Below are positions 26,837 to 62,622 of a stretch of 64,000 nt of DNA, in pieces. The first letter of the stretch is position 1, and every line of letters starts with the position of its first letter. The stretch lies in assembly GCA_964408855.1 (NCBI GenBank), contig CAYPBB010000010.1:9362-73361 (forward strand), in the 5' to 3' direction. Below the pieces are notes generated by a model. The model was given only the letters and a program-made list of their open reading frames with translations, was not told the DNA's origin and searched no databases. This stretch comes from an uncultured Ectothiorhodospiraceae bacterium (GTDB lineage Bacteria > Bacteroidota > Ignavibacteria > SZUA-365 > GCA-2699105). The position numbers were made by a program, and so were the translations under genes.

Positions 26837-26863
26837 CAGGGACGACAGTCTGACGCAATAATA

Positions 26864-26891
26864 CGGGTACCGGCACATGGTACCTGCTTTT
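26864..26891 (+). terminator. Putative intrinsic terminator after the ompA-family gene
   Basis: CGGGTACC-GGCACAT-GGTACCTG followed by CTTTT. Confidence 0.5.
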
Positions 26892-26961
26892 GTCATTGCA
26901 TTACAGACATAAAAGACGTACCATTCCTGCGGTCTTTTTGGAATAATTTGTCTTTAATTCT

Positions 26962-28440: not shown

Positions 28441-28458
28441 ACAGCGACGGAATTCATT

Positions 28459-29889: not shown

Positions 29890-29912
29890 ACGGCGGCAGT
29901 ATTCATTACACT

Positions 29913-32449: not shown

Positions 32450-32467
32450 AATACACCAGAAAATTTT

Positions 32468-33259
32468 TTATTCGTCCAAATCGCGCACAGCATATTTCCA
32501 GTCCCATTGCTCGCAACCGCATACGTCCAACGGAATAAACCGTCCCCGGTCGAAGCATACCGATTCCACGAGATTCCCTGCCTCATCCCATCGCCATGCC
32601 GCTCCCTGTAATTCTCCGCTCACCCAGGTTGTATCCGATTCCTTTTCGCCCGACTCATACCACCTGCTGGCGATACCTTCCCGTTTACCATACGCATAGG
32701 ATATTTCGAATTTCTTCATCCCCGACGGATACCAGCCGGTTTCAATACCATGCTTCATGCCGCACGTATAGGGAGATTGAGATTCCATTGCACCTGTATC
32801 ATTCCTGTGTACTCTTTCCCCATGTAACCTCCCATGCCGCCATTGTTCTTCGCGTGTGATTACCCCCTGTGTATTCATGCTAACATGCTTTCCGTCCCGC
32901 ACCCCATGCGAATAGTGTCCCTTTGAACGTAATTCGCCCGTCTCGTACCACGATAGAGTCTCACCATCAAGAACGCCGTCTTTGTAGGTATGCATAAACC
33001 AACGCTTCCCGTCTTTAGCATACTCTATTTCAGGACCGTTTTTCACATCGTCCTTGTACATCGCCGTTTTGAACAGCGTCGAATCGAATCGCCTGAATTC
33101 CGCAAGACCGTTGCGCATGCCATTTCTGTATTGAAATGTGATCTTCATTGCATGACCGTAAGGACATATCGTGTTCGTGCTGTCCGGCGGTGTATCCTGT
33201 GCAACGGCTGCGTAGCCAACCAGTATATATGTCAGGTAAAGGGCTATAGGCGCTTTCAT
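32468..33259 (-). CDS. MORN-variant repeat protein (YwqK antitoxin-like), exported
   Basis: YKDGVLDGETLSWYETGELR-type repeats. Confidence 0.82.
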   Translation of the reverse strand: MKAPIALYLTYILVGYAAVAQDTPPDSTNTICPYGHAMKITFQYRNGMRNGLAEFRRFDSTLFKTAMYKDDVKNGPEIEYAKDGKRWFMHTYKDGVLDGETLSWYETGELRSKGHYSHGVRDGKHVSMNTQGVITREEQWRHGRLHGERVHRNDTGAMESQSPYTCGMKHGIETGWYPSGMKKFEISYAYGKREGIASRWYESGEKESDTTWVSGELQGAAWRWDEAGNLVESVCFDRGRFIPLDVCGCEQWDWKYAVRDLDE

Positions 33260-44501: not shown

Positions 44502-45470
44502 ATGATCAAAAACATTTGCCTGTCCAGGCTTTTCGTCGCATTTTCTTTGAGCATCATCATGGCAGCATGCTCAGATCCTGAGTACAAGAACCAGATAAAC
44601 AGCGAAGGGCAGAGAGATGGATATTGGAAGCTATACCTTGACAAAAGTTATAAACCCACGCCCCTCGAAGTCTTAGCTCCTTTTTATGCCTTGCTCGAAT
44701 ACGACGATGGTGCGATAGACAGCGATGTTATGATCCATTATAGAACTGGTGAACTGCATTGGAAGGGAACACTTTTATCGTTTTCACCATTCCGAGTAGG
44801 AGATGGTGTAAATCATTTTTATCACAGAAATGGTACACTGCAAGCCAAGATTCCAATAAAGGACCAACAAATACATGGAAACGCTATTGAATGGTTTGAG
44901 TCTGGGAACAAGCAACGTTCATGTTCATATGCACATGGTTTAAAGGATGGAGTAGAAACAATATGGGATGCACAAGGATGTAAGACTGCGGAAATCCACT
45001 GGAACATGGGGAAGAAATATGGCACAGAGATCACCTGGTTCAATGTGGATAAAATACGAAGTTACACAGAATGGAAAAACGACATTTTGCATGGTAGGAA
45101 AATGTATTATGATCTAGGATTCAAAATAGTTGAGAACTATAGCTACGGGCAATTAAATGGTATTCGGGAAGAATACTGGCCGAACGGAGATCTCAGAGTT
45201 ACGACATCATATCTAAACGGGATAAAGCATGGACCGGAGATTGGATATTACAATGATGGGAGAAAGAAAAGCCTAATAAACTGGAATACTGGCTTAGAAA
45301 ATGGTATATGTCAATGCTGGCATCCAAATGGAGTCAAAGAAGAAGAATCGACTTACAGCAATGGTAAACAAACCGGAATCCAAGTCACATGGGACTCACT
45401 AGGTAATATCACAAGTAAAAGCGAATGGGACAATGGCAATTTCTTGGGTGTAACGTATGAAAGGAAATGA
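44502..45470 (+). CDS. MORN-variant repeat lipoprotein (YwqK antitoxin-like)
   Basis: Lipobox MAAC; repeats; LHWKGTLLSFSPF matches LFWKGVLMSFTPF of 31355-32449. Confidence 0.8.
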   Translation: MIKNICLSRLFVAFSLSIIMAACSDPEYKNQINSEGQRDGYWKLYLDKSYKPTPLEVLAPFYALLEYDDGAIDSDVMIHYRTGELHWKGTLLSFSPFRVGDGVNHFYHRNGTLQAKIPIKDQQIHGNAIEWFESGNKQRSCSYAHGLKDGVETIWDAQGCKTAEIHWNMGKKYGTEITWFNVDKIRSYTEWKNDILHGRKMYYDLGFKIVENYSYGQLNGIREEYWPNGDLRVTTSYLNGIKHGPEIGYYNDGRKKSLINWNTGLENGICQCWHPNGVKEEESTYSNGKQTGIQVTWDSLGNITSKSEWDNGNFLGVTYERK

Positions 45471-45730: not shown

Positions 45731-46015
45731 ATGAATACCTTTGATACACGAGATTTCTATCTCGCTTGTTTCCTGCATACAGAAGGGATAAGACTCTCTG
45801 GCCATTCGCGAGATGGCTCCAGAGTGATCTTTCATTTCAAGCTAACCGAAGAAACTGAAAACCTAGTGGATAAATATTTCCGGATGGACGCAGAAGTCAA
45901 TCCGATTGAGTACAGCTCGTCTATCAAGCATTTGAAGCACGTGATGTACGACTATACACCGATAATATTGGAGAATGAAGAATGTACAACAACACAGAGA
46001 ACACTAATGAACTAA
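45731..46015 (+). CDS. DUF5659-like small phage/satellite protein
   Basis: TRDFYLACFL...G..L.....GSRVIFHF pattern. Confidence 0.65.
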   Translation: MNTFDTRDFYLACFLHTEGIRLSGHSRDGSRVIFHFKLTEETENLVDKYFRMDAEVNPIEYSSSIKHLKHVMYDYTPIILENEECTTTQRTLMN

Positions 46016-48147
46016 ACTTCACATTTTCGTACGCAGAAAATCCCAATTTAATGGGATGGCTGACAAAATTCGAAACCAAAACAATCCCCACACCGGAACT
46101 CAACGAGTTCTTCACCACATACACATACAGTACAATAATCTGGGACGGACAAAGAAACGGAGATAATTTTTCCTATGCTGTAGGAGGAATTCTAGACTTT
46201 GACAATAAACCCGATGATGAGAGACAGTGGACTATAGATGAAGCAGTAGCTGCGTTTGAGGCAAACAATATGGCCTATGCATTGATCACCAGTAAATCAC
46301 ACACCTCGGACATACCCAAATTCCACGTATTTATACCGTTTAATAGAGTAGTTTATAACGTCGATGATTACAGACGGGTTATGCACTATCTAGTACATGT
46401 ACTGTATCCAGGCAGTGATAAAAAAATAAAAGATGGCGGCAGACAGATATTCCAAAGTCCGAAGAGCGCAATTTACCGTGATAATTTTCGATTACCATGT
46501 TTCAATATAGATACTGCAGCTTATCTGGAACCGGCAACTAGCCAGACATTGGTTTCGAGTTCTGCAGTGCCTACAGTAAAATCGTATAAACCGACGACAG
46601 CCAGTGCGAAGCAAAGAGATATTGAAACTATCAATAAGTCAGATGCATGGAAACCGGGTACGAAAGTACGCCTTGGAAATGGTTCAGTCGTTGCCATGGA
46701 TAGTGTCACGAAGTTAAATCGCGCTTTCTGTAATTGGCATGAAGTATCTGATAGACCATCGGCGGTTGTTGGATATTCTGAACGAAGCAGAAACCATTTC
46801 ATGCATTGTTTCAAGTGCAAAACTACCTTTTGGAAAGTCATGGATATAGATGTTACTCTCGCTAACTTCTATTCCTTTGGAAAATCTATCTATGAAGCAA
46901 GCATTTCCAACAACCTCTTTTACTTCACAGATATCGGAAAAGACAAGCTCGCAATATGAACTGGTGCCCCAACCAAGGAAAAGGCCGAGGAGTATTACCG
47001 TAAAGTAGTTAACGAGAAACATCTAGCAGTAACGCCAGCAGTAGAATACTATGGCAATCCTGATATCACGACTGCTCGGTTTGAACTTGACATGAGTAAA
47101 TGCAAAGCCAAGGTAGAGATTCCGCCAATACAGACCGATATTGATGACGATCAATTCATTGAGGATTACCTTGACCAGGTATTTGGTGAATACAAGGAGA
47201 CGATCAAACTCTACATGGCTCTTGTGATCTTCAGTAATTACCGACGACTTCCGACGCTAATCCTCACAGGAGCCAGATCCGCCAGTAAAACGACATTTGC
47301 GAACTTGTTATCTGCTGCATACCATTCAATGAGTACGACAATCCAGACAGTTCTCACGAGCTTTAATCCCTGGGCTGGGAAGAAAATCGTGACTCTTGAT
47401 GAGGGAGCTTCAGAAGGCAAGAGCCAGTATCGCGAGTTTAAGCGTATTTCAGGAGGAGAATGGATTTCTATCAACGAGAAATACAAAAACGAGTATAAGG
47501 TTCGGAATAATTCAACCCTTATCATACTCAGTAACGACATGTTTCCGATTACAGTCGAAGAAAGCGAAATCCCAACTGACGAAGCAGCGAACCAATTCCT
47601 GGTACTAAGACTTAGTAAACTCAACAAAACCCCCGACCCCCTTTATGGCAAAAAATTGGAAGAACGTTTAGGACACTATATTCAGAATGTTCTGCGTTCC
47701 ATCTATGATAGTCACGATACTTCTGTTTCTCGATACGGGATGTTGGTACCCATAACGGAATGGGAGGAACAGCTCTTCAAGAACAGCATGACAGAGACGG
47801 ATTACGTAATCGAATCGCTCATTGACGCGTTAGTCGATATACTAAACGGAAGTTCTGACTTTTACTCGTCGGATGACACACTAAAATTTGCACTTGAGGA
47901 AGGATATGTTCCAAAGGAAGTCATTGACAAGATCGCCAAGGAACATAAGATGAAAATCTCAGAGATCCACGAACGATTAACTTCAAAAGGTCTTTGTGAA
48001 CCACTCCGAAAGCAGGCAACCGAGAAATATGAAAGACCACAAATAAACGGGAAACGTCCCAGATGCCGGGAAATGACAAATGACCTGAAAACTATGCTGG
48101 ACGAATTGAAGTCTACGAATTCAGCACCAGATTTGTTCGGTGAATAA
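45982..48147 (+). pseudogene. Primase(-polymerase)-like/Zn-finger/DUF5906-type SF3 helicase fusion interrupted by one in-frame TGA (46957-46959)
   Basis: Both track ORFs (45982-46959 and 47092-48147) share one frame and the gap is open (AI*TGAPTKEKAEEYYRK...); TSKSH..KFHVFIP, CNWH...HCFKC, TGARSASKTTF, VTLDEG, IILSN motifs. Confidence 0.75.
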
Positions 48148-48943: not shown

Positions 48944-49375
48944 TCCAAAAGTGATAATCCCCTAGAAAATGGGTCCCATACCCCACCCCCCCGGGAGTGG
49001 AGTCAGACTGCCATACAAAACAAACCCGTTTTCTGGAGAGAATTCGGGTTTCGATTTTTTTTTGCCCATATTTTGGGAACCCCATTAGCGATTTTGCCCC
49101 GGATTCTAGAAGAGTCTTCCTTTTTACCGCGATAGGATTCACCAAGATCGCCCCGAAGATGCTATGTCCTATATTACTTGACACTTACAACAGCACGGCC
49201 CCTCTGATGCTGCCATCCTCCCCCAGCATTACGTTTCCATCAAATTGCTCATACATATTTCGTCATTCTGCACAATTTTCGTAAGTTTGCCCTTACAGTT
49301 TCAGAAATCTCAGTGTTTTTCGGTGACAATGGACGACCGTTAAAACGGGGGCCCTACCAAGTAAGTGAGAGTATT

Positions 49376-52300
49376 ATGACTTGCTTCTCAAGGATATCCA
49401 AAAATTCTCAAATTCGTACTTCACGTTCACTTCTATTTGCTGTGCTGCTCGTGATGTCTGGGATTCTTACATTATCCTTCGAGAGTAATGCTCAATGTGT
49501 CGTTTTTACCTCACCTACAAGCGGAACAATCGTTTCGCCTGGTGAGACTATCACAGTCACGGGAAATGTAATCAGTCCGAGTAGCTATGGACACTACGTA
49601 ACAATTTATTTCGGCACAACGAATTGTGAAATAGGCGAAATGGTGAGTGGATCGTCTTGTTCTTCAGCTTCCTCGGGAGGTTTTAGCGTCAATATTACCA
49701 TCCCAAATTATGTTGCGACAAATTGCATATACAGAATCTATGGTAGTATTGGTGGAAATTGCGATCCAAAGGAACCCGATCATCCCTGTGCCTGTAACGG
49801 CAACGGAGCATCTATTGAATTGGTCATAACCTGCGATGGCGCACCTCCATACCAACTTCAAGCCCCAAATTTAATATCCCCCATTAATTTTGAAGACAGA
49901 GTACGGAATCCAGCATACCATACCTGGGGAGATGTTCAGAACGCAGAGTTCTACGAAATTCAAGTCGACCCCTCTCCTAATTTCGATACGATTGTTCTTC
50001 AAGATTCCCTTGGCAAACCCTACTACGTTCCGATATTCAGAACAACTATTGATAGAACACAAACTGAGTTTATAGATTTTGCACCTGATTGGGAGAACAC
50101 AACATTTTATTGGCGTGTTCGTGCTGGATCATGTGACTGTAAGGTTTGGGGCCCATGGTCCGAGACATGGAGTTATACTACTGCACCTTGCATATCATTA
50201 GAGTTGCCCTTGAATGGTACAATATTTCAATCCGGTGAAATTACTTTGGTAGAAGGCCGAATTGTGGAGCCGCTTCTCTGGGGTAAAGAGGTAAGTGTAT
50301 GGCTAAATGGCCCCTACTATTATCCACCTGATCCCCAATACCCACCAAGTGAGATCGGACATGGATGTTCCTCCTTGAATGATGGAAGCTTCTCTTTGGA
50401 AATCACCCTGCTATCAGATCCTGGTGATGGTATTGCGCGTTCATTGGTCGATGGTGGATGGACCTTGACCCCTTATGTATTATCCAACGACGACTGTATT
50501 GGTGATGAGTATTATTGCGGTGGTGTTTCACAAGGTATATTCTACATCTACAACGACCTCCCACTTACACGTATTCAGGAACAAATTGGGCGAAATACTT
50601 CGTCAATCTATGTAGATGATCCAGTTGATATAATCACTGGAAACTTTCTTTATTCTGCGAACGATATCCACATCCCTGACAAGTTGGGAATCAACCTTAC
50701 TCGCAATTACAACAGCCAAAATATTCAGAATTCAGAACTCGGTGCAGGTTGGTCTTTCACGTTCGGTGCATCGCTTCAATTAGTTGATGATTGGAGAATC
50801 ATTGCACGCGGGGACGGAAGAAGGTTCGTCTTCAAGATGGATAGCTTGGGGACATACATACCCATGGAGTTTGCAGGAACAGAAGGTACGCTCGATTCAG
50901 CCACAACCGTTTGGACCTACACCAGCAAGTACGGATACAAGTATGATTTTGATAACACGGGACTGCTGCAATCCCTCAGTGACAGAAACGGAAACGAGAC
51001 AAGGTGCTTCTACAAAACGCACAACATGATCGATAGCTTGGTCATTCCTGGGGATAGACGTATTACCTTCTCATACTTGACAAGTCCGGATACGCTCATC
51101 GAATCCATTACTGATTTTATCGGCAGGACTCACAGGTATGCGTACGACACCGAAAGTAATCTTATCAGCTATATCAATCCTAGAGGCGACACGACCAAGT
51201 ACGAGTACGATACACAGCATCATCTGACAAAAATCATTGATCCCAGGGGCAACGTGTTTATTCAGAACAACTATGACCCCAAGGGACGTGTGATTGAGCA
51301 GTACGATGCCTTCGGTGCACGAACCGAGTTTGTGTACGATACGCTCGGGATGAGTACATACGTAGTCAACTACCTCGGTGATACAACAACATACGTCTAC
51401 GATCAGCACCACAGGATACTTTCGCAAACAACAGCTCTTGGATACTCTGAGTCATACGCTTACGATTCAACAAACAATCGAGCGTCGATCGATGACATGA
51501 ACGATGAGCTGTTCTCCTATCCTGAATACAGCCCCTTTGGTGATGTTGCCAGGGAGGAGAATCCTGTCTCGCAGGTCCGTACGTTCTCATACGATAGCAC
51601 AACAGGCGACTTGCTTGCGAGAGGTGATGACCTTGGCACCCTGGAAGAACGGAGCTACTCCACAAACGGTCTCCTCTTACAGCTAACGGATGCAAATGGA
51701 TCAGCGACCAATATGACATACGATGGTTATGGCTACCTGGAATCGACATCCATGGTAGCAGATGGGGCTTCCCGGACTACAGAATACGATTACGACATAG
51801 CCGGACGTATGCTCTCCAGGAAGAATCCGGAAGGAGATGTCACGGATTATCAATACGATGAATCTGATAATGTCACGTCTACCCTCTTTGCCAACGGAGC
51901 CAGTACTCAGAATGAATATGACGCAAACGACAATCTCATCAAGTCGATAGATCGAAACGGTAATGAGACCCGCTTTGAGTACGATGTAAACAATAACCTG
52001 CGGTTTGTTTACGCTCCTGAGAGCAAAACGACGGAGTATCGTTACGACAGTTTGAATCGCGTGACCAGTATGATCGATGCCGAAGGCGGTGTCTATGCGT
52101 ATCAATACGATGCCATGGGAAGAAAGACGCTTTCCATTGATCCGATAGGACGAACTACACACATGGGATACGACGGCAATGGCAACATGCTGTTCTCCAC
52201 CTCACCGAAAGGCGATACGACGCAGTTTATCTACAACGCTATCAATCAACTTGTTGAGAAGGTTAGTCCCGAAGGAAACACAACAAGTTACAGCTATGAT

Positions 52301-55300
52301 GTACGGGGAAGTCTCACTCAGATATCATATCCGAGTGGCAATACAATAGAGTACACATACGACGGGAACGGGAACCAGACATCAAAGAAGGAATATCTCG
52401 ACTCTACGACTACAAGGACCACAACCTACACATACAACGAAGCCAACCAGCTTGTGGAAACAACATATCCAAGCGGTGGAAAGGAGAAACGTACCTACGA
52501 CCGGAATGGCAATCTGATTGAACTGGTTACCATTGATGGCAAAACGACAGCATACGAATACAACGAGATGAACCGGGTTTCGAAAGAAACTGATTACAGG
52601 CAATTCTCCCAAGCGTATCAGTATGACAACAATCTGAACCTTCTTTCTGAGACTGATGATCTTGGAAGGCGGACAGCATACGCATACGACAAGGTCAACA
52701 GACAGGTAAGCACTACCGATCCCATCGGGAATACAGACTCCCTGGTGTACGACAAGCTCGATCGCGTTGTGCAAATGATCGATGCCAATGGAAATGCAAC
52801 AGTGTATGGCTATGATGCCGCTGGTCAACTGACTAGCGTCACGGATCCGCTTGGTAATTCCATGTCGTACCAGTATGATCTCAACGGTAATCTGTCACAG
52901 ATCACTTATGGAAATGGAAGAGTTGTAAGCGGCTTCATCTATGATAAGGACAACCGGTTACTCAACGAACCCGATCCGCCGACGTGGTACACGTACGATC
53001 CAAATGGCAACATTGCCTCGAAAGTCGATGCGAATGGTGATACAACTTCATACGAATACGATGGCGCCAATCAACTGCTCAGGAAGACCTTCAGCAGCGG
53101 AGGGAGCGTCCAGTATTCCTATAATGCAAATGGACTAGTGGAAAGCATAGAAGATGAGCAAGGACTTATCCGGATGCAGCACAATGCCGCAAATCAGTTG
53201 CTGGAACTTGCCACCCCGGATGGTATAATCCAGTACCAATATGCCGGTCCGAACAGGGTATCGATGAAGTATCCGAATGATGAGTTGCTCAAGTACTCCT
53301 ACGACCGCAACCGGCTTACAACCATTGAAGGGACCAGGGATGCAATAAGCTATACGTACTATGACAATGGACTCATTGAATCTTTGACCTATCCTGATAG
53401 TTCCGTTACTTATTATGCTTATGACGAAGCGAACCAGTTAGAGACGATCCTCAGTGAAACATCCGATGGTGAACTCATCACATCGGATGCTTACAAGTAC
53501 GATGAAGCAGGGAACAGAGTGATCAACATTCGCACGAGGCGCAGAAACCCCGGATTTGTCGGGGTACTTGTGGACAGCACGCTTCCCATGACGGCACTTC
53601 TAGCAAAGCATTTCTTCGATTCGCCAGTGGATACTATTCTCATCTGCTCCAATAGAGGATTCGCGCACAATGCTACTATAGCTGCCTATGCAAGTAAGCT
53701 CAATGCTCCGGTATTGTATGTGAATCCAAACACTCTGGTCGGCTCTCCCGAATTTACTACCGTCTTCTCGGACTTGACAGCAGGGTTCTCAGCTCCGCAT
53801 GCCATCGTATTTGGCGATGAAACTACCGTTTCCGATTACGTCGTTTCGCAATTGCACAGACTTGGTTGTACTACGGTGAGGATTTTTGGCAACAATCGTT
53901 TCGAAACCGCCAATCTCGTTGCCTCAAAGTTGCCAGTATATTCTGGTCAAAGAAAAGCATTCCTCACGGGATCATCGAATCCGGAAGACCTGGCCATATC
54001 TGCGTATGCTTCGGCGCTTCTGGGCATTCCTCAGTATATGACGTACAACGACGAGCTTGCACCTGAAACACTTGCTGCATTACAATCAGCGGGAATAGAT
54101 TCCATCATTGTTGTTGGCAACTCCATATCCGACGCTGTACTTCAGCAGTTGATAAGCAATGGAATTGTAGTAGTGCAACGATTTGATCAAGACAATATCC
54201 GCGAGCGTAGCGCAGCCATTCTGACAAACAGCGGGACCAACTTGGCTGAGAAGGGTCCCCTTTATCTTTGCGAGTCAAAGAACTTCAGGGAAGCGATTGC
54301 CATTTCAACTTACGTTGCGAACAGGAGCGGGTATGTCATCTGTGTGGATGATCCGGCCGACTATCTTGCAACAGTCTCGGACATGATCTCAATTGGCACT
54401 GAGGTTGATTCGATTTTCCTGCTGCAGACAAATCCGTTTGTCGACCAACAGGCGATTCAAATCCAACAGACGTTTTTCGGATACGAGGTTGATACTGTAC
54501 GCTACACCTACGATGATATGAACCAGCTTCTTGCCGAGAGCAGCAAGACATTTGGTGTGATGCAGTACACGTATGATGCCAACTACAATCGATCACGCCT
54601 TGTGGACAATGGTGTTGCTACCGATTACGCCTACGATACCTGGGACCGTCTTATCTCTGCCGGTACTACTGCGATGAATTACGACGGCAATGGAAACTTG
54701 ATAACCGAAACTGACGCTGACAAAACAAGTCAGTATGTATGGGATAGTCGTGGACGGCTCGCCGAGTACAACAATTCTCTTGGAGATACTGCACGATACA
54801 CCTACGATGCGCTAAACCATCGCATTCGTATTTCGAACATTCATTCCGAAGCATCTCCTGAGACAACCTCCTTGGTCTATGGTGACGATTGGGATGCTAT
54901 CCTCGAATTCGGTACGGCAGAAGACTCAATCAACTATCTGAGTGGTTTTGGTATCGATGATGTGTATCTGTCCCGCTCAGAGCAGGTATCGTTCCTCTAC
55001 AAAGATGCACTAGGGAGTATTGTTAGCGCAAGTAGCGACGAATCACAATCGTTCTCATCCTTGATGTACGATGGATTTGGGAATGCGAACCGGAATCTGA
55101 GTGTGTTTCCTTTGAGGTACTCGTACACAGGGCGGGAGTATGATTCACCTCTCAAGGGCTATTATTACCGAAATCGCACATACTCAGCTAGAAGAGGAAG
55201 ATTTCTATCGATGGATCCTATTGATCCACAAAAATGGTATTCTAGCAGTTTAAATAAGTACATTTATGTTAAAAACAATCCAGTGCGCTGCATCGATCCG

Positions 55301-55837
55301 AATGGGTATTATGGAATTGCGGTCAACTTCAATGCATCTATAGCATACTACGTTGGATTAGATTTTGACGTTACAATTGGATACGATGATAAGATTGGCT
55401 TATATAACAGCAATGACGTTGGGCTGCTCATCGGTATGGGATTGGATGGTAATGCATCTCTCGATATAGTTACAGAAGATAAAGTTCTGACTAGACATGG
55501 AGTAATTGTAAAGATACCAATTTCTGCCGATTTAGAGGTAGTTAAAGTCATTAGTGCAACACTCCTTGGCTTAGAGTATAGAGTTGGATCAGATGAAATC
55601 AGTATAAATCCCGATGTTGCATTTGCCAATGTCCATGGTGGTAGCAAAATTAATTTCTCTCTAAAAGAGTTGCAGTTGCCTGACGCTTATCCCAAGTTTG
55701 GCTTGCGCGGCGGGGTCGGGGCAGCACTAAAAATCGCCTCTATCTCGTATAGAAGTGAGAATACTATTGATATATCATGGATTACACCACATATATATAA
55801 TGCGAAAAGGATGTTAGACGAAATCATATTAAGATAA
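49376..55837 (+). CDS. Rhs/YD-repeat protein: signal peptide, Ig/FN3-like domains, DUF6531, YD repeats with inserted CWB2 trimer, Rhs core, about 176-aa C-terminal domain
   Basis: DPVDIITGN...LTRNYNSQ...LGAGWSFTF (DUF6531); YxYD repeats; GNNRFETA (CWB2); YSYTGREYD...YYYRNRTY...FLSMDP...NNPVRCIDPNG. Confidence 0.93.
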   Translation: MTCFSRISKNSQIRTSRSLLFAVLLVMSGILTLSFESNAQCVVFTSPTSGTIVSPGETITVTGNVISPSSYGHYVTIYFGTTNCEIGEMVSGSSCSSASSGGFSVNITIPNYVATNCIYRIYGSIGGNCDPKEPDHPCACNGNGASIELVITCDGAPPYQLQAPNLISPINFEDRVRNPAYHTWGDVQNAEFYEIQVDPSPNFDTIVLQDSLGKPYYVPIFRTTIDRTQTEFIDFAPDWENTTFYWRVRAGSCDCKVWGPWSETWSYTTAPCISLELPLNGTIFQSGEITLVEGRIVEPLLWGKEVSVWLNGPYYYPPDPQYPPSEIGHGCSSLNDGSFSLEITLLSDPGDGIARSLVDGGWTLTPYVLSNDDCIGDEYYCGGVSQGIFYIYNDLPLTRIQEQIGRNTSSIYVDDPVDIITGNFLYSANDIHIPDKLGINLTRNYNSQNIQNSELGAGWSFTFGASLQLVDDWRIIARGDGRRFVFKMDSLGTYIPMEFAGTEGTLDSATTVWTYTSKYGYKYDFDNTGLLQSLSDRNGNETRCFYKTHNMIDSLVIPGDRRITFSYLTSPDTLIESITDFIGRTHRYAYDTESNLISYINPRGDTTKYEYDTQHHLTKIIDPRGNVFIQNNYDPKGRVIEQYDAFGARTEFVYDTLGMSTYVVNYLGDTTTYVYDQHHRILSQTTALGYSESYAYDSTNNRASIDDMNDELFSYPEYSPFGDVAREENPVSQVRTFSYDSTTGDLLARGDDLGTLEERSYSTNGLLLQLTDANGSATNMTYDGYGYLESTSMVADGASRTTEYDYDIAGRMLSRKNPEGDVTDYQYDESDNVTSTLFANGASTQNEYDANDNLIKSIDRNGNETRFEYDVNNNLRFVYAPESKTTEYRYDSLNRVTSMIDAEGGVYAYQYDAMGRKTLSIDPIGRTTHMGYDGNGNMLFSTSPKGDTTQFIYNAINQLVEKVSPEGNTTSYSYDVRGSLTQISYPSGNTIEYTYDGNGNQTSKKEYLDSTTTRTTTYTYNEANQLVETTYPSGGKEKRTYDRNGNLIELVTIDGKTTAYEYNEMNRVSKETDYRQFSQAYQYDNNLNLLSETDDLGRRTAYAYDKVNRQVSTTDPIGNTDSLVYDKLDRVVQMIDANGNATVYGYDAAGQLTSVTDPLGNSMSYQYDLNGNLSQITYGNGRVVSGFIYDKDNRLLNEPDPPTWYTYDPNGNIASKVDANGDTTSYEYDGANQLLRKTFSSGGSVQYSYNANGLVESIEDEQGLIRMQHNAANQLLELATPDGIIQYQYAGPNRVSMKYPNDELLKYSYDRNRLTTIEGTRDAISYTYYDNGLIESLTYPDSSVTYYAYDEANQLETILSETSDGELITSDAYKYDEAGNRVINIRTRRRNPGFVGVLVDSTLPMTALLAKHFFDSPVDTILICSNRGFAHNATIAAYASKLNAPVLYVNPNTLVGSPEFTTVFSDLTAGFSAPHAIVFGDETTVSDYVVSQLHRLGCTTVRIFGNNRFETANLVASKLPVYSGQRKAFLTGSSNPEDLAISAYASALLGIPQYMTYNDELAPETLAALQSAGIDSIIVVGNSISDAVLQQLISNGIVVVQRFDQDNIRERSAAILTNSGTNLAEKGPLYLCESKNFREAIAISTYVANRSGYVICVDDPADYLATVSDMISIGTEVDSIFLLQTNPFVDQQAIQIQQTFFGYEVDTVRYTYDDMNQLLAESSKTFGVMQYTYDANYNRSRLVDNGVATDYAYDTWDRLISAGTTAMNYDGNGNLITETDADKTSQYVWDSRGRLAEYNNSLGDTARYTYDALNHRIRISNIHSEASPETTSLVYGDDWDAILEFGTAEDSINYLSGFGIDDVYLSRSEQVSFLYKDALGSIVSASSDESQSFSSLMYDGFGNANRNLSVFPLRYSYTGREYDSPLKGYYYRNRTYSARRGRFLSMDPIDPQKWYSSSLNKYIYVKNNPVRCIDPNGYYGIAVNFNASIAYYVGLDFDVTIGYDDKIGLYNSNDVGLLIGMGLDGNASLDIVTEDKVLTRHGVIVKIPISADLEVVKVISATLLGLEYRVGSDEISINPDVAFANVHGGSKINFSLKELQLPDAYPKFGLRGGVGAALKIASISYRSENTIDISWITPHIYNAKRMLDEIILR

Positions 55838-55904
55838 CTATATCTCAATGGATGTTATACGAATCTAGATTGTCAATAAGTGATAATGCATTGATACTGA
55901 GGTA

Positions 55905-58517
55905 ATGATGATATACGTAATTGTTGATTCACTTGCACTATTTTCATTTATTTGTTGTTTGTTTCAATCGGCATTTGCGCAATCTGTGAATCCTGTGGGT
56001 ACGTCACTAGAGGTTTATGAATCATCTAACTCTATAAGTGTTGGTATTGTTTCAATTTCGCAAATTAATTCACACTCTTTCCTGCATGAACTGCGCTCAG
56101 GTGGAAACGGCTCCCTCATCGCATCCATTCCCGATCAATTGAAAGGCATGCCAACGTCCATCGCCGTTTTCGACCATACTATCCTAATCGGCTACCAGGA
56201 CTCAAACGAAGTACTCTTTTACAACTGTGTAACCTCTGCACAAACTTCCATCAAGTCTCCGAACAAGCATCTATTCGGTACTACTATCTCCAATGTCGCG
56301 AGTAGCTCTGGTCATGATTATTTTTGTGTTGCAGCAGAAACGTCCGGACAGGTCTTTCTGTATGATGGGCTCCCTAGTGCATTTGACCTATACGAACAGG
56401 TTCTTGAAGGTCTTCCCAGTTCTGGCTATGGACGAAGCTTGAGAGTTATTGACAATCTCACGGGCAATAATAAACCGTACGTTATTGTAGGAGGCCCATA
56501 CACATCAGATTCACTTATGGAGTACGGGAAGATTTACCTGTACTCAGGCCAACCGTTTGTCTTGGTGGATTCGATTTCAGGACCATGTGAATACTCGCAT
56601 TTTGGATCATCTCTTTCATCGGGCGATGTAAACGGCGACAGCTATCACGATCTAGTAGTAAGCGCCCCTGGCTCGGGAAATCATCACGAAGGAGCTGTCT
56701 ACGTGTACTACGGAGGGCCTCATTTCGATACAACCCCGGACAAAGCCTACTACGGGACACAGGCAGACGAATTGTTCGGTAACTCCATTCTTGCAGTAGA
56801 TCGTCGAACTGCTATGATTGGTGGCCTCGCGATTGGCAGCTACAATGCATCGCACAATGGCCAGTCCCGCAACGGCGCCTTGCACTGGTACAACATCACA
56901 AATCCACCGAACAGCAAAGCGGATACGGTGATCTATGGCGAAGCATCAAGCGATCACATGGGCTGGGCTTCTGCATTCATGTCCAAGTCTGCCACCTCTG
57001 ATTCCTGCGCAATACTCTACTCGTCACCGTACAATAGCTCGGCCAACAGTATTGAAGGCAAGGTGCATGTACTGGACCTCTTCAAACCGCGAGTCAAAGG
57101 ATTCGTAATCAATACATACCCGGAAAACATTGGCCTTAAGATCAAGGTCGAAAACAAGGAGTATCGGGACGGAGTCACTCTCGAATCAATCGTCGGAACG
57201 CCCTATCTGTTGTATACACAGGAAGTGCAGTATTCAGACTCGACTAATCAGCAAGTTCGCTGGCGTTTCGACCGGTGGAGTGATGGTGGAGAAAGAATCC
57301 ACAACGTCACCGCCGAAGAAGGAACTGTGATTACGGCATACTTCAAGAAAGAGGTAATGATTACATCGAGCGTCCTTCCGAACTGCGGCTCAACAGGTGT
57401 GTACGGTACAATCGAAGGTAATGAGTGGCATCAGGTGGGAACCTCGGAAACGCTCACCGCTATTCCGAGTCCCGGCGCAATGTTTTCGGGTTGGGAAGGC
57501 GCGGTCTCTCAAACCTCAGAGACTTTGACGCACGACTTCACTGAACCAACCACAGTTATTGCACGCTTCAAACTTCAGAATCCTGAAATAGACGATGTAC
57601 TCAACACGAGCATCAGCAGCAACGACCTGTCGATGGATATTTACTGGCATGATAATGCAAAAGGATTGGCAGAAGTTTGGACACTTGAGCGTAAATCATC
57701 TGTTGGAAATACGTGGAGTGAAGTAGCAACGCTCATCACGGGAAACAGTCCATACAGGGATACACACCAGCTCATCGAAAAAAGTAGCTATGCCTACCGG
57801 TTAAGAGCGAATTCATGCGATCCGACCAGCAATTCAGGCTATGGCGATATAGACCTTACAACGGTATTGGGGATGGATTCTGTCGTCATAGTCGAACCGC
57901 AGCCTCCGCTTGTAATTCAATATGACGACAATCACAATCCACTCGGAAATTTCCTGGTGAAGTTTTCACTCACGAACAAAACCGTGGATGAGTTCGAAGA
58001 CTCTCTTACTACGGAATTCATGGTCATGTCTGGGAATGTAGCATTGGCACCAGGTGAGATAGCATCGAAGCCATACTATGGTATCTTCACGACACAGGAG
58101 AATTACATCGCTACTTGGGAATGTGTCCCTGCGTATCAACCGTCAGACGACCTGGCAGTTGTCGCAATCAGATACTACCGCACCCCAGAACGCGCCGACA
58201 CTGCCTACAGTGAACCAATCGAGATTACACATACGATTGTCGGAATAGAATCGCCTCCTTCGGTACAATCGTACCGACTCTTTCAGAACTATCCCAATCC
58301 GTTTAGCGGCAACACAACCATTCTCTTCTACGCCAGTTCAAGCGCGACTGTCTCTTTGGTCATCCATGACATACTTGGCCATCCCGTGTACAAACGTGGA
58401 ATAGAGCCTACCGTAGGCCTCAATAGAATTGACATCAGCGGACTCCCATCCGGATCATATCTCTACGTTCTCCAAACTAATGAAGGATCGTTGTCCGGGA
58501 TAATGATAGCAAGATAA
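55905..58517 (+). CDS. T9SS-secreted FG-GAP/integrin-alpha propeller protein with InlB-type repeat and FN3-like domains
   Basis: Signal peptide; GDVNGDSYHDLVVSAPG...GAVYVYYG; FDRWSDGG, FSGWEG; LFQNYPNPF...SGSYLY CTD. Confidence 0.85.
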   Translation: MMIYVIVDSLALFSFICCLFQSAFAQSVNPVGTSLEVYESSNSISVGIVSISQINSHSFLHELRSGGNGSLIASIPDQLKGMPTSIAVFDHTILIGYQDSNEVLFYNCVTSAQTSIKSPNKHLFGTTISNVASSSGHDYFCVAAETSGQVFLYDGLPSAFDLYEQVLEGLPSSGYGRSLRVIDNLTGNNKPYVIVGGPYTSDSLMEYGKIYLYSGQPFVLVDSISGPCEYSHFGSSLSSGDVNGDSYHDLVVSAPGSGNHHEGAVYVYYGGPHFDTTPDKAYYGTQADELFGNSILAVDRRTAMIGGLAIGSYNASHNGQSRNGALHWYNITNPPNSKADTVIYGEASSDHMGWASAFMSKSATSDSCAILYSSPYNSSANSIEGKVHVLDLFKPRVKGFVINTYPENIGLKIKVENKEYRDGVTLESIVGTPYLLYTQEVQYSDSTNQQVRWRFDRWSDGGERIHNVTAEEGTVITAYFKKEVMITSSVLPNCGSTGVYGTIEGNEWHQVGTSETLTAIPSPGAMFSGWEGAVSQTSETLTHDFTEPTTVIARFKLQNPEIDDVLNTSISSNDLSMDIYWHDNAKGLAEVWTLERKSSVGNTWSEVATLITGNSPYRDTHQLIEKSSYAYRLRANSCDPTSNSGYGDIDLTTVLGMDSVVIVEPQPPLVIQYDDNHNPLGNFLVKFSLTNKTVDEFEDSLTTEFMVMSGNVALAPGEIASKPYYGIFTTQENYIATWECVPAYQPSDDLAVVAIRYYRTPERADTAYSEPIEITHTIVGIESPPSVQSYRLFQNYPNPFSGNTTILFYASSSATVSLVIHDILGHPVYKRGIEPTVGLNRIDISGLPSGSYLYVLQTNEGSLSGIMIAR

Positions 58518-58539
58518 GAACCTAAATTCGGGGTCACGC

Positions 58540-58580
58540 GAAAGGCACACATCTGGTCAAATGCACTGGGTGTGCCTTTC
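58540..58580. terminator. Hairpin between convergent units
   Basis: GAAAGGCACAC ... GTGTGCCTTTC. Confidence 0.55.
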
Positions 58581-58743
58581 TGTAATTGAACTAGCAATCT
58601 CCTCGCTGAAAGAAGTTTCTACCCATCCCCCCCAGCGTGTTGACTAAGAGTTCCCTAACTCAAGACCTGATTACCTGGAAAGGGTACGGCCTATATTTAC
58701 CTACCCCCGGGTCTTCGATTCTGAGAATTTTCTGGGGGATTGT

Positions 58744-59451
58744 TCACCCTATCACCGTCCTTTCCAACCGGTCCTTCCAGCGCTCCCAGTCCGGCATGGC
58801 TGCCGACATCAGCCGGTAGAATTTCTTGTCGTGATTTGGATGAACTAGATGGCAAAGCTCATGTATGATGACGTAATCGATACACACGAGCGGGGCTTTT
58901 ATGAGTTCGGTGTTCAGCGTAATGGTGCCATGGCCGGTGCAGCTCCCCCAACGTGATGTCATCGTTCGCAAGATGATTTTGGGATATGCAGCGCCTCGTT
59001 TAGCGAACCAGGGGTAATACCCATCAACCTTCCGGTTGAACATTTCTGATGCATGCTTCCGGTACCAATCTCGCATCACTTTTTTAGCTGAGGAAGAATC
59101 CATTGGCTCCGGTAATTCTACCTCAAAGAACTTCCCCACTAGCCGTACTCGTCTCTTCTCGCCTAGTCTGATTTTCAATCGATATTGCCGCCCCAGGTAG
59201 TAGTGCGTTTCTCCGCTCACGTATTCACGTGGAGGTTGAAGAGGGTGGAATTGGTCGAAATAGTTGAGTTGCTTCACAATCCAGGGTGCTTTGCGAAGAA
59301 TTCTAGACTTTACTTCCTCCAGCGGCTTTCCACTTGGCACTATTGCTTCGACTCTCATATCCGGATGCACATTGATCGTCAAGGACCTACGATCACGTTC
59401 GTGAACGATTACAACAAACCGTGTACTTCCATATTCGAAGAATAACTTCAA
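58744..59451 (-). CDS. M48/YgjP (DUF45) family metallopeptidase associated with type I R-M
   Basis: YVSGETHYYLG, MTSRWGSC, YVIIHELCH..HPNH...FY; directly downstream of hsdR. Confidence 0.9.
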   Translation of the reverse strand: MKLFFEYGSTRFVVIVHERDRRSLTINVHPDMRVEAIVPSGKPLEEVKSRILRKAPWIVKQLNYFDQFHPLQPPREYVSGETHYYLGRQYRLKIRLGEKRRVRLVGKFFEVELPEPMDSSSAKKVMRDWYRKHASEMFNRKVDGYYPWFAKRGAAYPKIILRTMTSRWGSCTGHGTITLNTELIKAPLVCIDYVIIHELCHLVHPNHDKKFYRLMSAAMPDWERWKDRLERTVIG

Positions 59452-59457
59452 GGTCTA

Positions 59458-62400
59458 CTACCTTTCTTCCCTGCTCTGGGCAATAGCAAGACACCGATCC
59501 ATAATCTCATCGAACTGGTCCACATCCACAGACAACCCATCATCCAACGCTTCGAAGAGCAGATCATCCAGTTCATTTCGCATCTTGTTCTTTTGTGGTT
59601 CGTTGTAGTACCAGTTCACAATGCGTAGACGATTGATGACCTCATCTATTTTAAGACACAACTCTGCTGTTTTTTCAGCATCCGAATCGCCCGAGAAATT
59701 CTTGATGCTTCGAAAATATGCAGCCGCGACATCATTGTTTTGCAACCTGGCCGGCAGATCGTCTCCGCGTCTCGTACGAACTTGCTCCTCAAACTGTCTT
59801 ACCTTCGATAGATACTCGCTCTCACTGATACGCTTGTTACGAAAATCGTCGATCGTAGCCTGGATCAGTTCAGAGAAACGCTTATAGAATTCCGGATCCC
59901 TGTCCCAAAGCTCATTGATTGATTTCTTTGTCCTGTGAGCGATTGTGTCAGCTTTTGCTGCATCTGTTGAGAGCGCATCAACCTCAGCCTGGAATGCATC
60001 TTTCTCAAAGATGTTTACGGGTGCAATTATCGTTTCTACCTCTTCAGCACCAACGTACGTGTCAAGTAGTCTCTTGATTTTCGGTTCGTACTCTGCGAAG
60101 TCTACACTTTCGGCGAACCTGCGTCCCAGGCTGTGACGAATCTTGTTATAGCGTTTCAGATCTTGCTTGTACATCTCAATTGTAGCTGCAGGAGTAATCT
60201 CGTGGAACCTGACTGTCGATAGGGCCATTTCCATGACGTTCGCAAACTCTCGGAGGTTAGCATAGAACTTATCCCGTTCCGATCGTTCAGTCAGAAACTG
60301 CGCAATCTCCTCTGTGTCGTAGCGATTTCTTAGCGTTGTGAACTGACCGACCAGGACACTGTGTTTCTGCTTGACATCAGGCAACTGTTCTTTCACATCT
60401 GTCAGCAATCCTACCAGGTCTTTCGCGTCGAAATCTTCGAGCTTCTCGTAGAGCTTCAAAGCATTATCCAGCTCGCCAAGCACTCCGCGATAATCGATGA
60501 TGTAGCCATATTCCTTGGCTTCATACAGTCTGTTCACCCTGGCAATTGCCTGTAGGAGTGTATGCTCTTTCAGCATGCGAATGAGATAGAGAATAGTATT
60601 CCGAGGGGCGTCAAATCCTGTAAGAAGCTTATCGACGACAATGATTATCTCCGGATCGTCAGCGTTCTTGAAATTGGTGATAATCTGCGTATTGTACTTC
60701 TCCTCGCTTCCCCAACGGTACATCATCTTCTTCCAAAAGTCCAGCACGTCGTTCTTGTCGTCGTCACCTTCGATTTCACCTTCGCGATCATCGGGTCCGG
60801 AGATAAGAACCTCCGATGTCACCCGCTTAAAGGAATCAAGGTATTTCTTGTACTTCAATGCCGTAGCTTTGCTGGACGTTACCAGTTGAGCTTTGCGGTC
60901 CTTTCCTTTCCAGTTGTCAGCGAAATGCTCACTTATGTCCCAGGCAATTCTCATTATTCGCTGTTCAACGTTGTTGATCTGATCAGTGCTGGAGTACCGT
61001 TTCTTTAGGTCATTTGCTTCTTCCTTTGACAGCCTTTTTGTGACTTTCTCAAACCAATCGTCAATACTCTCCTTTTGTACGATTTGCTGAGAATGCCGAC
61101 CTTCGTAAAGTAACGGGACGACGGCTCCATCATCCACTGCTTGATTGATCGTATAGGTATCGATCAATCCACCAAACCGTTTTATGGTATCCTTTTCATT
61201 TCTTCTAACCGGCGTCCCTGTGAAGCCAATGAAACATGCCTTTCTCAACACGCGCTTCATTGCGCTGTGCAGTTTTCCATATTGAGTACGGTGCCCCTCG
61301 TCGACAAGCACGAAGACTTCTGTGCTGTCGATTGGCGCCTTCATCTTTACAAGCGCCGTCTCGAACTTATCAATGACTGTTGTAATGATACTGACATTAC
61401 GCCGTTCCAACATCTCGGCAAGATGTTTCCCGGATTTCGCTCTCTCCGGCTCCAGGTTGCAGTCAGAGAATGTATTGTAGATCTGCTCATCGAGATCAAC
61501 ACGGTCAGTAACGACGACGATTGTTTCGCCTTTAATCGCAGGTGACTGAAATATCCCTTGGACCAGCATCACCATACTTAACGACTTCCCACTTCCTTGC
61601 GTATGCCAGACCACTCCGCCTCTACGAGTCCCATCTTCATCAAATTCCAGTATCCTTTGCAGCATCTTTTCAACAACGAAATACTGCTGATACCGTGGTG
61701 TTTTTCGGACTCCCCTATCGAAGATGCTATATGACCGTATATTCTTGAGCAAGCGCTCACGGTTACAAAGCGCAAACAACAACCGGTCCTGCTCCGTTAC
61801 CATGCGATCGACATGATATTCGTTGGTTTCCTCGTTGACCACTCGTCCGCCCGGGATTGCGAGAGCACGGAGCTGTTCATTACTTAGACTCAGGTCGAAT
61901 ACCCTTTTTACGTCATCATCTGAATACTCGCGCTCCTTCCATACCGACCAGTACTCTCGTGATGTACGGACAGTCCCGTACTTTGCTGCACTCTCGGCCA
62001 CTGCAATCAGGAGTTGGGCGTAGTGAAACAGGCGTGGGATTTCATCCTCGTTCTGGTTCTTTATCATTTGATTGACAGCCTGGTCAACCGGGTCTGTTGT
62101 ACCTGGCGCCGCCCTGTCCTTACATTCGATGACCACTACGGGGATGCCGTTGATGAACAGCACAATGTCGGGTATTCGGTGCTTGTGCATACCAGACCGC
62201 TCTACCTTGAACTCCTCAACGACGTGGTAAACGTTACGATCCGAATTTTCCCAGTCGATGTAATGCAGTGTTTTGCTTTTAACGTCCTCACTTACTGTAA
62301 ACGATTTCCCATGTGTTAGTATCTCGTGGATTTTCTGATTCGTGGGGATAAAGCCACTTTCCTCCCTGCGCTTCAGGTCAAGCACAGCATCGCGGATAAC

Positions 62401-62622
62401 AGTCTCCGGGAAACGATGCTTCTTCCCAAGATGTTCATATTCTGCGTTTTGTTTGAGCCATTCACTAAGAACTTTCTCAAGTAAAACATTCGAGTAATCC
62501 TCCCCGCGTAGTTCGTAGACCTCGCCATCTGACAGATACTCCCAGCCAAGCTTTTGCAAAAGTATCAGGGCAGGGAGCTTGCTCTGTTCGTCCTCGTTGT
62601 GCTGGTGGATGTAGATTGCCAT
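59458..62622 (-). CDS. hsdR: Type I restriction enzyme R subunit
   Basis: PDIVLFINGIPVVVIECK nuclease motif; HTQGSGKS, VDEGHR, FTGTP, LLTGFDAP, LLQAIARVNR helicase motifs. Confidence 0.97.
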   Translation of the reverse strand: MAIYIHQHNEDEQSKLPALILLQKLGWEYLSDGEVYELRGEDYSNVLLEKVLSEWLKQNAEYEHLGKKHRFPETVIRDAVLDLKRREESGFIPTNQKIHEILTHGKSFTVSEDVKSKTLHYIDWENSDRNVYHVVEEFKVERSGMHKHRIPDIVLFINGIPVVVIECKDRAAPGTTDPVDQAVNQMIKNQNEDEIPRLFHYAQLLIAVAESAAKYGTVRTSREYWSVWKEREYSDDDVKRVFDLSLSNEQLRALAIPGGRVVNEETNEYHVDRMVTEQDRLLFALCNRERLLKNIRSYSIFDRGVRKTPRYQQYFVVEKMLQRILEFDEDGTRRGGVVWHTQGSGKSLSMVMLVQGIFQSPAIKGETIVVVTDRVDLDEQIYNTFSDCNLEPERAKSGKHLAEMLERRNVSIITTVIDKFETALVKMKAPIDSTEVFVLVDEGHRTQYGKLHSAMKRVLRKACFIGFTGTPVRRNEKDTIKRFGGLIDTYTINQAVDDGAVVPLLYEGRHSQQIVQKESIDDWFEKVTKRLSKEEANDLKKRYSSTDQINNVEQRIMRIAWDISEHFADNWKGKDRKAQLVTSSKATALKYKKYLDSFKRVTSEVLISGPDDREGEIEGDDDKNDVLDFWKKMMYRWGSEEKYNTQIITNFKNADDPEIIIVVDKLLTGFDAPRNTILYLIRMLKEHTLLQAIARVNRLYEAKEYGYIIDYRGVLGELDNALKLYEKLEDFDAKDLVGLLTDVKEQLPDVKQKHSVLVGQFTTLRNRYDTEEIAQFLTERSERDKFYANLREFANVMEMALSTVRFHEITPAATIEMYKQDLKRYNKIRHSLGRRFAESVDFAEYEPKIKRLLDTYVGAEEVETIIAPVNIFEKDAFQAEVDALSTDAAKADTIAHRTKKSINELWDRDPEFYKRFSELIQATIDDFRNKRISESEYLSKVRQFEEQVRTRRGDDLPARLQNNDVAAAYFRSIKNFSGDSDAEKTAELCLKIDEVINRLRIVNWYYNEPQKNKMRNELDDLLFEALDDGLSVDVDQFDEIMDRCLAIAQSREER

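Follow-up and report, generated by a model that had tools for sequence, protein, structure and literature searches.

A module of the cell-wall-binding repeat 2 (CWB2) family inserted in the YD-repeat shell of an Rhs polymorphic toxin from a diderm bacterium

Introduction

Rhs cages are generally regarded as generic containers with a smooth surface, with delivery set by N-terminal adaptors such as PAAR and VgrG or, in Gram-positive bacteria, wall-binding regions. The solved cages linked to type VI secretion systems (T6SS), namely RhsA of P. protegens (7q97), Rhs1/Tre23 of Photorhabdus (7pq5), Tse5 (8cp6) and the Rhs protein of S. bongori (8qjd), have been described as smooth, "lacking protrusions and decorations" (bioRxiv 10.1101/2024.02.26.582050). 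Here, we describe an Rhs/YD-repeat protein whose shell carries a three-unit module of the cell-wall-binding repeat 2 (CWB2) family. The protein is encoded in a stretch of 64,000 nucleotides (contig CAYPBB010000010.1, positions 9,362 to 73,361, from an uncultured bacterium), hereafter referred to as the window. It resembles the T6SS cages in the plug and the DPxG motif, and differs from them in that they have PAAR/VgrG and immunity genes and lack a signal peptide.

The CWB2 triangular prism, a module otherwise characteristic of Gram-positive bacteria of the Clostridium kind, anchors the surface-layer (S-layer) and Cwp proteins of Clostridioides difficile to an anionic polymer of the cell wall. 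All three repeats are needed for binding of the anionic polymer, and the motif P[ILV][ILV][LV] ("PILL"), present in each unit, is required for anchoring (PMC4973711). The module described here shares with Cwp8, Cwp6 and the high-molecular-weight (HMW) subunit of SlpA (PF04122; 5j6q, 5j72 and 7acy) the three tandem units and the pseudo-threefold prism. The C. difficile modules are terminal, located at the N or C end of surface proteins (PMC4973711), whereas this one is internal to a YD shell (residues 1391-1706 of 2153). It also differs from them in sequence (identity 13-19%), in the partial retention of the PILL and RIxGxxRxxT motifs and in its host, a diderm with a type IX secretion system (T9SS).

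Sec-dependent Rhs toxins with wall-binding regions exist in Gram-positive bacteria (PMC12704120). WapA of B. subtilis and WapA1/2 of S. suis (PMC12704120) are similar to the window protein in the signal peptide, the lack of PAAR and VgrG, the YD cage, the Rhs core, the polymorphic tips and the presence of a wall-binding-type element. In WapA, however, this element lies at the N-terminus and belongs to other types (in S. suis, LysM among others), the host is a monoderm, immunity genes are present and there is no FG-GAP/T9SS partner of the kind described below. The window protein may work like WapA, yet the location of its module inside the shell and its diderm host set it apart from the WapA type.

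Two further systems are comparable. In the Tc BC cocoons and teneurins, as here, a YD shell is combined with extra folded domains and an FG-GAP propeller is associated with the system: TcB has an FG-GAP-type propeller, and teneurins have NHL and FN-plug domains. Compared with Tc BC, the propeller at this locus is a separate protein predicted to be sorted by the T9SS, the shell contains CWB2, and SpvB and TcdB_mid are absent; no search for TcA was made. The TANFOR toxins of Bacteroidetes share the signal peptide and the lack of a T9SS C-terminal sorting domain (CTD) of their own, and the enrichment of their neighborhoods in T9SS-CTD proteins has led to the hypothesis of T9SS-linked export (PMC7073777). 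They are built on another scaffold, without an Rhs cage or CWB2, and have immunity genes, and their link to the T9SS is equally hypothetical. The protein described here falls outside the T6SS-type, WapA-type, Tc-BC and T9SS-cargo groups alike.

Results

The insert is a complete CWB2 module

The locus was selected from an original prediction, made from the sequence alone, that a CWB2 trimer interrupts the YD repeats of an Rhs protein. The borders it gave (about 53545 and about 54490) were reproduced: the YD run halts at ...YKYDEAGNRVINIRTRRR (residue 1390, nt 53545) and restarts at VDTVRYTYDDMNQLL (residue 1705, nt 54488), while RIFGNNRFETANLVA, at about 53879-53923, encloses the segment 53888-53911 that had been picked out as part of a unit. 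The excised 312-residue segment matches PF04122 (CW_binding_2) with 53.5 bits (E 3.6e-14) and the full protein with 43.3 bits, the cut-off being 24.9. Comparison of the insert with all PDB sequences using phmmer retrieved Cwp8 (5j6q, E 3.8e-9 over 208 residues), followed by six SlpA HMW chains (E 3e-4 to 6e-3). No further CWB2-like sequence was found in the window.

An AlphaFold2 (AF2) model of the insert, built from an alignment of the window protein with its two homologs described below, has a mean pLDDT (predicted local distance difference test) of 76.3 and a predicted template modelling score (pTM) of 0.75. It consists of a disordered linker of ~14 residues (pLDDT <50) followed by three successive strand-helix units. 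When this model was compared with the PDB using Foldseek, CWB2 modules were the sole significant matches (E 1e-13 to 1e-10, query TM-score (TMq) 0.64-0.77, ~310 columns, with 309-324 for Cwp8 and Cwp6). Among them were Cwp8 (5j6q; E 1.8e-13, TMq 0.75, 324 columns), Cwp6 (5j72; TMq 0.77) and the SLPH of SlpA (7acy; TMq 0.73); the next, unrelated match had E 5e-3 and TMq 0.18. In the model, the entire three-unit prism, rather than one unit, superposes on the C. difficile modules.

By the profile, the Cwp8 match and the whole-module match in Foldseek, the insert is a genuine and complete CWB2 trimer, as had been proposed. The accompanying claim of three similar units holds at the level of profile and fold and is less well reflected in direct unit-to-unit comparison, where pairwise similarity is marginal (z 2.4-3.1, reached by 4-11 of 300 shuffles); Pfam itself reports just two CW_binding_2 stretches. 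Because the visible repetition is weak, the three-unit reading rests on the profile and fold matches.

Two homologs carry the module at the same site

When the insert was compared by HMMER with 1.84 billion representative proteins, 6734 CWB2 proteins were identified at E<=1e-3, of which the best 150 were examined. Among these, long proteins with an interior match were limited to the window protein and two others, P0121 (2204 aa, matched over 1445-1726) and P0122 (2122 aa, matched over 1379-1664), which were the top two matches, both with 118 bits. Each has a hydrophobic leader or signal peptide, DUF6531, YD repeats, CW_binding_2 (44.3 and 29.4 bits, respectively) and the Rhs core. Both align end to end with the window protein (33-36% identity), and the position of the insert is exactly the same in all three; over the residues of the plug and the first shell part, identity is 36-41%. 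The N-terminal region of the window protein aligns partly with that of P0121, and the N-terminus of P0122 is unrelated; at the other end, the three proteins align up to the DPxG motif and their tips are unrelated past it.

The genes for P0121 and P0122, labelled in GenBank as hypothetical proteins (TAL70172.1, TAL70500.1), are paralogs in one metagenome-assembled genome (MAG), "Bacteroidetes bacterium FW215_bin.12" (SCSM01000011 and SCSM01000007, hereafter loci L001 and L002). The GC content is 29-31% at these loci and ~52% over most of the window, so the family extends across distant lineages. An identical copy of the window gene is present on an independent Logan contig (L004) from SRR12489248. 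The named nearest canonical CWB2 proteins all belong to Bacillota (Salisediminibacterium, Oscillospiraceae and Kallipyga).

Other searches added no members. A scan of JGI metagenomes with the insert profile yielded none. Word-index searches with the full protein and with a three-protein profile returned ~120 Rhs proteins, among which PF04122 occurred only in the window's own; as P0121 and P0122 were missed, these searches are incomplete. When the insert was the sole query, the word-index search gave no match and missed even the parent protein, so that negatives of this kind are unreliable for this family. Literature searches combining CWB2 with Rhs, and T9SS with RHS/YD/FG-GAP, found no description of the architecture. 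In line with the original prediction, which did not recognize the architecture as described, the CWB2 module inside an Rhs shell is real, conserved and very rare, with three cases among the best 150 of the 6734 CWB2 matches, and is not previously described in the literature searched.

The insertion lies at a turn of the shell and is old

Compared with Rhs homologs that lack the module, the insertion is a clean indel: BLAST with residues 1200-1900 gave colinear pairs of matches that abut in the subject. Residues 1206-1390 of the window protein match 2618-2805 of P0004 and residues 1707-1817 match 2806-2918 of the same protein, and P0003, P0009 and P0029 behave alike. The insert takes the place of the turn that would lead from the second strand of a YD repeat into the first strand of the following one, in keeping with its predicted position at a hairpin turn. 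The solved Rhs cages match the window shell, with the insert spliced out, at phmmer E values of 1e-23 to 1e-37, indicating homologous shell and core. Mapped onto a solved cage, the insertion point lies ~270 residues before the C-terminal cleavage site, in a register that the repeats leave ambiguous.

The third repeat of CWB2 trimers includes a strand that comes from the first (PMC8881574). The ends of the module would therefore be close together, which suits insertion into a turn. At the usual 1.2 Å3/Da, the folded 34.0-kDa module should occupy ~41,000 Å3 by our estimate. The lumen of an Rhs cage measures ~25,000 Å3 and that of a Tc BC cocoon ~37,000 Å3 (bioRxiv 10.1101/2024.02.26.582050); a module of this size could not share such a lumen with the 19-kDa tip, and by this volume argument it would be displayed outside the cage.

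Identity of the insert across the three proteins is 26-32%, about as high as that of the shell, and the site is identical. The occurrence of the same site in proteins that are 33-36% identical, the shell-like conservation of the insert and its shell-like GC content at third codon positions (GC3) together imply that the insertion is old and maintained.

Architecture of the Rhs gene

The gene is a single unbroken open reading frame (ORF; 49313-55837, plus strand), in which the ATG at 49376 was taken as the start (Table 1). By eye, the putative leader is MTCFSRISKNSQIRTSRSLLFAVLLVMSGILTLSFESNA, followed by Q, with a basic n-region MTCFSRISKNSQIRTSRS, a hydrophobic core LLFAVLLVMSGILTL and then SFESNA before the Q, an A-x-A-like site. 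This fits the Sec signal that had been predicted, as does the absence of PAAR and VgrG; neither these two nor SpvB, TcdB_mid or a T9SS sorting domain were found in the Rhs protein with Pfam and NCBIfam. The predicted immunoglobulin (Ig)/fibronectin type 3 (FN3)-like N-terminus has as its sole match Big_7 (E 0.006), which falls short of the Pfam cut-off, so that this part of the prediction is weak. The window ORFs that were scanned included no T6SS genes.

The shell is recognized by RHS_repeat (PF05593; 380 bits over 22 stretches), by partial TEN_YD-shell matches in Pfam and by YD_repeat_2x of NCBIfam (TIGR01643; 274 bits). The plug, DUF6531 (PF20148), reaches 61.1 bits (cut-off 24.1) and contains a motif of the ADPVDxxTGN type, with DPVDIITGN common to the window protein, P0121 and P0122. 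The Rhs-associated core (TIGR03696) reaches 55.2 bits (cut-off 32.5), with the motif ...GRFLSMDP...NNPVRCIDPNG and a predicted aspartyl-protease cleavage at DPxG; every motif that self-cleavage requires is present. The C-terminal tip has no match in Pfam, NCBIfam, PADLOC, the PDB or plasmids. It lacks Cys, has a strand-like alternating hydrophobic pattern, and its single-sequence AF2 model reaches a pLDDT of only 28.7. Judged by its domain content, the protein has all the defining features of Rhs polymorphic toxins except an adjacent immunity gene.

GC3 is 0.37 in the N-terminal region, 0.53 in the shell, 0.50 in the insert and 0.335 in the C-terminal tip, and overall GC is 0.47, 0.48 and 0.386 in the shell, the insert and the tip, respectively. 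Sharp GC3 breaks are a classic signature of swapped Rhs ends, and these suggest that both ends of the gene have been exchanged by recombination and that shell and insert form the stable core.

Table 1. Positions of features in the window
Feature	Position	Strand	Remarks
Whole gene, 2153-aa Rhs/YD-repeat polymorphic toxin with internal CWB2 module	49376..55837	+	mature protein ~235 kDa
Sec-type signal peptide, residues 1-39	49376..49492	+	predicted cleavage between SNA and Q; read by eye from the translation
Variable N-terminal region, residues 40-414, probably Ig/FN3-like	49493..50617	+	Big_7, E 0.006, sub-threshold
DUF6531 plug (residues 415-486) and first YD shell part (to residue 1390)	50618..53545	+	PF20148, RHS_repeat, TEN_YD-shell
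CWB2 insertion, residues 1391-1706 (316 aa, 34.0 kDa)	53546..54493	+	PF04122, Cwp8 match, AF2, Foldseek, indel
CWB2 unit 1	~53576-53869	+	border from secondary structure of the model
CWB2 unit 2	~53870-54172	+	border from secondary structure of the model
CWB2 unit 3	~54173-54481	+	border from secondary structure of the model
C-terminal YD shell part, with Rhs-associated core at its end	54494..55306	+	TIGR03696
Rhs-associated core, residues 1898-1977	55067..55306	+	TIGR03696; ends ...NNPVRCIDPNG
Polymorphic C-terminal tip, residues 1978-2153 (19.1 kDa, pI 5.0)	55307..55837	+	after DPxG; divergent among homologs
Partner, 870-aa secreted FG-GAP beta-propeller protein with type A T9SS CTD	55905..58517	+	Pfam, TIGR04183
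DUF5659 gene	45731-46015		lower-GC block
DUF5906 NTPase-like gene	47092-48147		lower-GC block
YgjP-like metallopeptidase	58744-59451		lower-GC block
Type I restriction R subunit	59458-62622		lower-GC block
AAA_13/DUF4145 gene	62627-63856		lower-GC block

Two minor features of the family were also noted. The PDPPT motif NEPDPPTWYTYD (residues 1198-1203, nt ~52967-52984) is invariant in the three members, and alignments to other Rhs proteins tend to begin just past it, so that the motif may be peculiar to the shell of this clade. In P0122 (L002 5900-12268), residues ~50-330 contain Asp-box-like motifs SxxxGxTW, seen by eye, in place of the Ig/FN3-like N-terminal region, which suggests a BNR/sortilin-type propeller. 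A separate BNR/Ycf48-like protein is encoded two genes downstream of P0121 (L001 11176-12477).

A downstream FG-GAP protein accompanies the CWB2-bearing Rhs genes

Besides the two same-site homologs, the analysis brought up two features that the original prediction had not mentioned, a conserved partner gene with FG-GAP and T9SS-CTD domains and the lack of an adjacent immunity gene. The partner follows the Rhs gene after a gap of 67 bp. It matches FG-GAP (44.8 bits), Por_Secre_tail (35.3 bits) and TIGR04183 (38.7 bits, cut-off 23), with the CTD at residues 796-863 (nt 58290-58493), and Flg_new_2 was also matched. Homologs of the partner lie directly 3' of the genes for P0121 (L001 8878-10965, 695 aa, gap of 82 bp) and P0122 (L002 12286-13779, 497 aa, gap of 17 bp), on the same strand in all three loci, and are 25-28% identical over the propeller. 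The CTD of the L002 copy is above the TIGR04183 cut-off of 23 (25.6 bits), and that of the L001 copy is sub-threshold (Pfam 19.9 bits, E 9e-4). The window partner carries extra middle domains (Flg_new_2/InlB B-repeat) that are absent from the L001 and L002 copies.

By tblastn, no homolog of the partner was detected beside any of the five closest insert-less Rhs genes. Another 41 metagenomic loci match the partner profile; neither Rhs nor CWB2 was detected there by tblastn, and these are therefore generic FG-GAP or CTD proteins. With three of three loci against none of five insert-less ones, the partner seems to travel with the CWB2-bearing clade, in what is a very small sample.

In none of the three loci (window 55838-58743, L001 8796-11175, L002 12269-13853) is the toxin tip followed by a small immunity-like ORF. 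Among the insert-less Rhs loci, a small downstream ORF is present in three of five (a SUKH gene in L003, small ORFs in L047 and L048), and large unrelated genes lie downstream in L046 and L049. An immunity gene could be located elsewhere in the genome.

The assignment of the locus to a diderm agrees with the gene content of the window. Type A T9SS sorting domains are present in at least five of the encoded proteins, and the others include an OmpA-family protein and UvrA. The T9SS-CTD and OmpA-family proteins, together with the Bacteroidetes relatives, point to a T9SS-bearing diderm as the host.

Discussion

Possible roles of the inserted module

The original prediction had offered two roles for the module, self-anchoring and targeting of Gram-positive prey. 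Our tentative preference is for the first, in which the CWB2 prism is a non-covalent anchor that, with the FG-GAP partner, keeps the loaded cage on the surface of the producer. Constant parts of polymorphic toxins are usually trafficking or anchoring parts. Retention at the surface is favored because the module and the partner are constant, the N-termini and tips vary, and the Rhs protein has no outer-membrane signal of its own. Some Bacteroidota anchor T9SS cargo to anionic lipopolysaccharide (A-LPS), which falls in one chemical class with the ligand known for CWB2.

Under this reading, the YD shell of a Sec-exported Rhs cage in a T9SS-bearing diderm would enclose a swappable 19-kDa tip behind the aspartyl-protease Rhs core, and a CWB2 pseudo-trimer captured long ago in a YD turn would now be a fixed decoration on the outside of the cage. 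The FG-GAP propeller partner, presumably co-transcribed with the Rhs gene, would be sorted to the cell surface by the T9SS, which might thereby take part in the export of the cage. To hold the cage, the prism would bind either an A-LPS-type anionic glycan of the surface or the partner itself, and the variable N-terminal domains and tips would set target and activity. Such a system would represent the diderm counterpart of the wall-associated (WapA-like) Rhs strategy and would not depend on the T6SS.

Several observations weigh against anchoring by the prism. The canonical RIxGxxRxxT motif is kept solely in the middle unit, as RIFGNNRFET, and is further degraded in P0121 and P0122. The residues at the PILL positions of the window protein (PVLY, PQYM and (G)YVIC) match the C. 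difficile motif partially; with PILF, PILL and YVLC in P0121 and PVVF, PVLL and LLVI in P0122, the hydrophobic strand is kept and the motif is not strictly conserved. The inserts of the three proteins have net charges of -11, 0 and -5, which does not help, since canonical trimers range from -21 to +6, and charge and pI were for this reason dropped as a clue to an anionic ligand. The co-occurrence of insert and partner comes from three loci in two genomes, could reflect shared ancestry and does not single out the insert as the interface. We know of no CWB2 ligand in Bacteroidota and of no transport of CTD-less cargo by the T9SS. Finally, CWB2 in Firmicutes co-distributes with a dedicated polymer-synthesis gene (bioRxiv 10.1101/2025.04.02.646754).

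The second role, which we regard as rather unlikely while still giving it appreciable weight, is that the displayed prism binds the secondary cell-wall polymer of Gram-positive bacteria and concentrates the cage, whether released or held at the surface, on monoderm prey. Among the close relatives of the module, all those with a name come from Bacillota, and the only demonstrated ligand of CWB2 is a Gram-positive wall polymer (PMC4973711). The lack of an immunity-like small gene in all three loci, compared with its presence in insert-less relatives, would fit targets unlike the producer, although such genes could lie elsewhere in the genome. A prey-specific binder would, however, be expected to diversify, and here it is the N-terminal domains that vary while the module is constant; its binding motifs are degraded, and no route is known by which a 235-kDa cage could pass through a thick wall. 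Slim chances, in our view, attach to the most elaborate version of this proposal, a T6SS-independent, T9SS-linked Rhs weapon in which a Firmicutes-derived prism is the receptor-binding domain for Gram-positive wall polymers, the detached propeller serves as surface tether or carrier and no immunity gene is needed.

A further reading, less probable than prey targeting, dispenses with glycan binding: the prism would be a platform for protein-protein contacts, which docks the FG-GAP/T9SS partner, for piggy-back export or tethering, or tiles the cages in the manner of SlpA. The degraded canonical motifs, the lack of an outer-membrane export signal in the Rhs protein itself and the association of insert and partner (three of three loci versus none of five) are what would be expected in this case. 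However, the sample is tiny, consisting of three sequences, and T9SS hitch-hiking has no precedent to our knowledge. A structural parallel does exist, in that CWB2 tiles form lattice contacts in SlpA (PMC8881574).

It is quite improbable that the module is a tolerated relic, captured once and persisting as a neutral, functionless bulge of the shell. The tiny size of the family (three proteins in two genomes), the degenerate motifs and a unit-to-unit similarity barely above chance would be in line with such an origin. A neutral bulge of 316 residues would nonetheless be expected to decay or vanish, whereas the insert is kept as well as the shell, and its frame, three units and confidently predicted fold are preserved at 26-32% identity across lineages with 30% and ~50% GC. 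An artefact, that is, a chimeric assembly or gene-calling error joining an Rhs gene to a Firmicutes CWB2 gene, has nothing but the unusual domain mix to recommend it and was rejected as next to impossible in view of the continuous ORF, the identical gene on the Logan contig, the same junctions in two further genes and the matching composition of the insert.

Implications

The locus shows that the wall of an Rhs shell can itself accommodate, at a hairpin turn, a complete module that folds independently, and that such a module can be kept across distant lineages. It bears on the question of how Sec-exported Rhs toxins of diderms that have no T6SS adaptors leave the cell or stay on it, for which the partner is a lead towards the T9SS, and on what CWB2 modules do outside Gram-positive walls. 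The insertion point also marks a permissive site for the engineering of decorated Rhs or teneurin-like cages. If the module does bind Gram-positive polymers, it would represent a rare case of an anchoring domain re-used for targeting across the divide between monoderms and diderms.

Genomic context of the window

The Rhs gene lies within a block of lower GC (42000-64000; 0.44 versus 0.52 upstream). Because of this composition and the gene content, which includes DUF5906, DUF5659, restriction, YgjP and AAA_13/DUF4145 genes, the block is probably an island, mobile or defensive in nature, that was acquired; neither an integrase nor a tRNA was noticed in the window.

Elsewhere, the window contains a cluster of T9SS cargo genes (20747-31343). 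It encodes a 1379-aa protein with LamG and ASH/HYDIN-type Ig domains and a CTD, a 648-aa OmpA-family protein and three consecutive proteins of ~480 aa (26962-28440, 28459-29889 and 29913-31343), two of them with a CTD and the third with DUF3244. Four consecutive same-strand ORFs at 14486-18571 (318, 290, 320 and 415 aa), in a GC trough of 0.42-0.44, have no Pfam match at E<=1e-5. Three MORN_2 proteins are scattered in the window (31355-33259 and 44502-45470), one of them encoded just upstream of the Rhs island.

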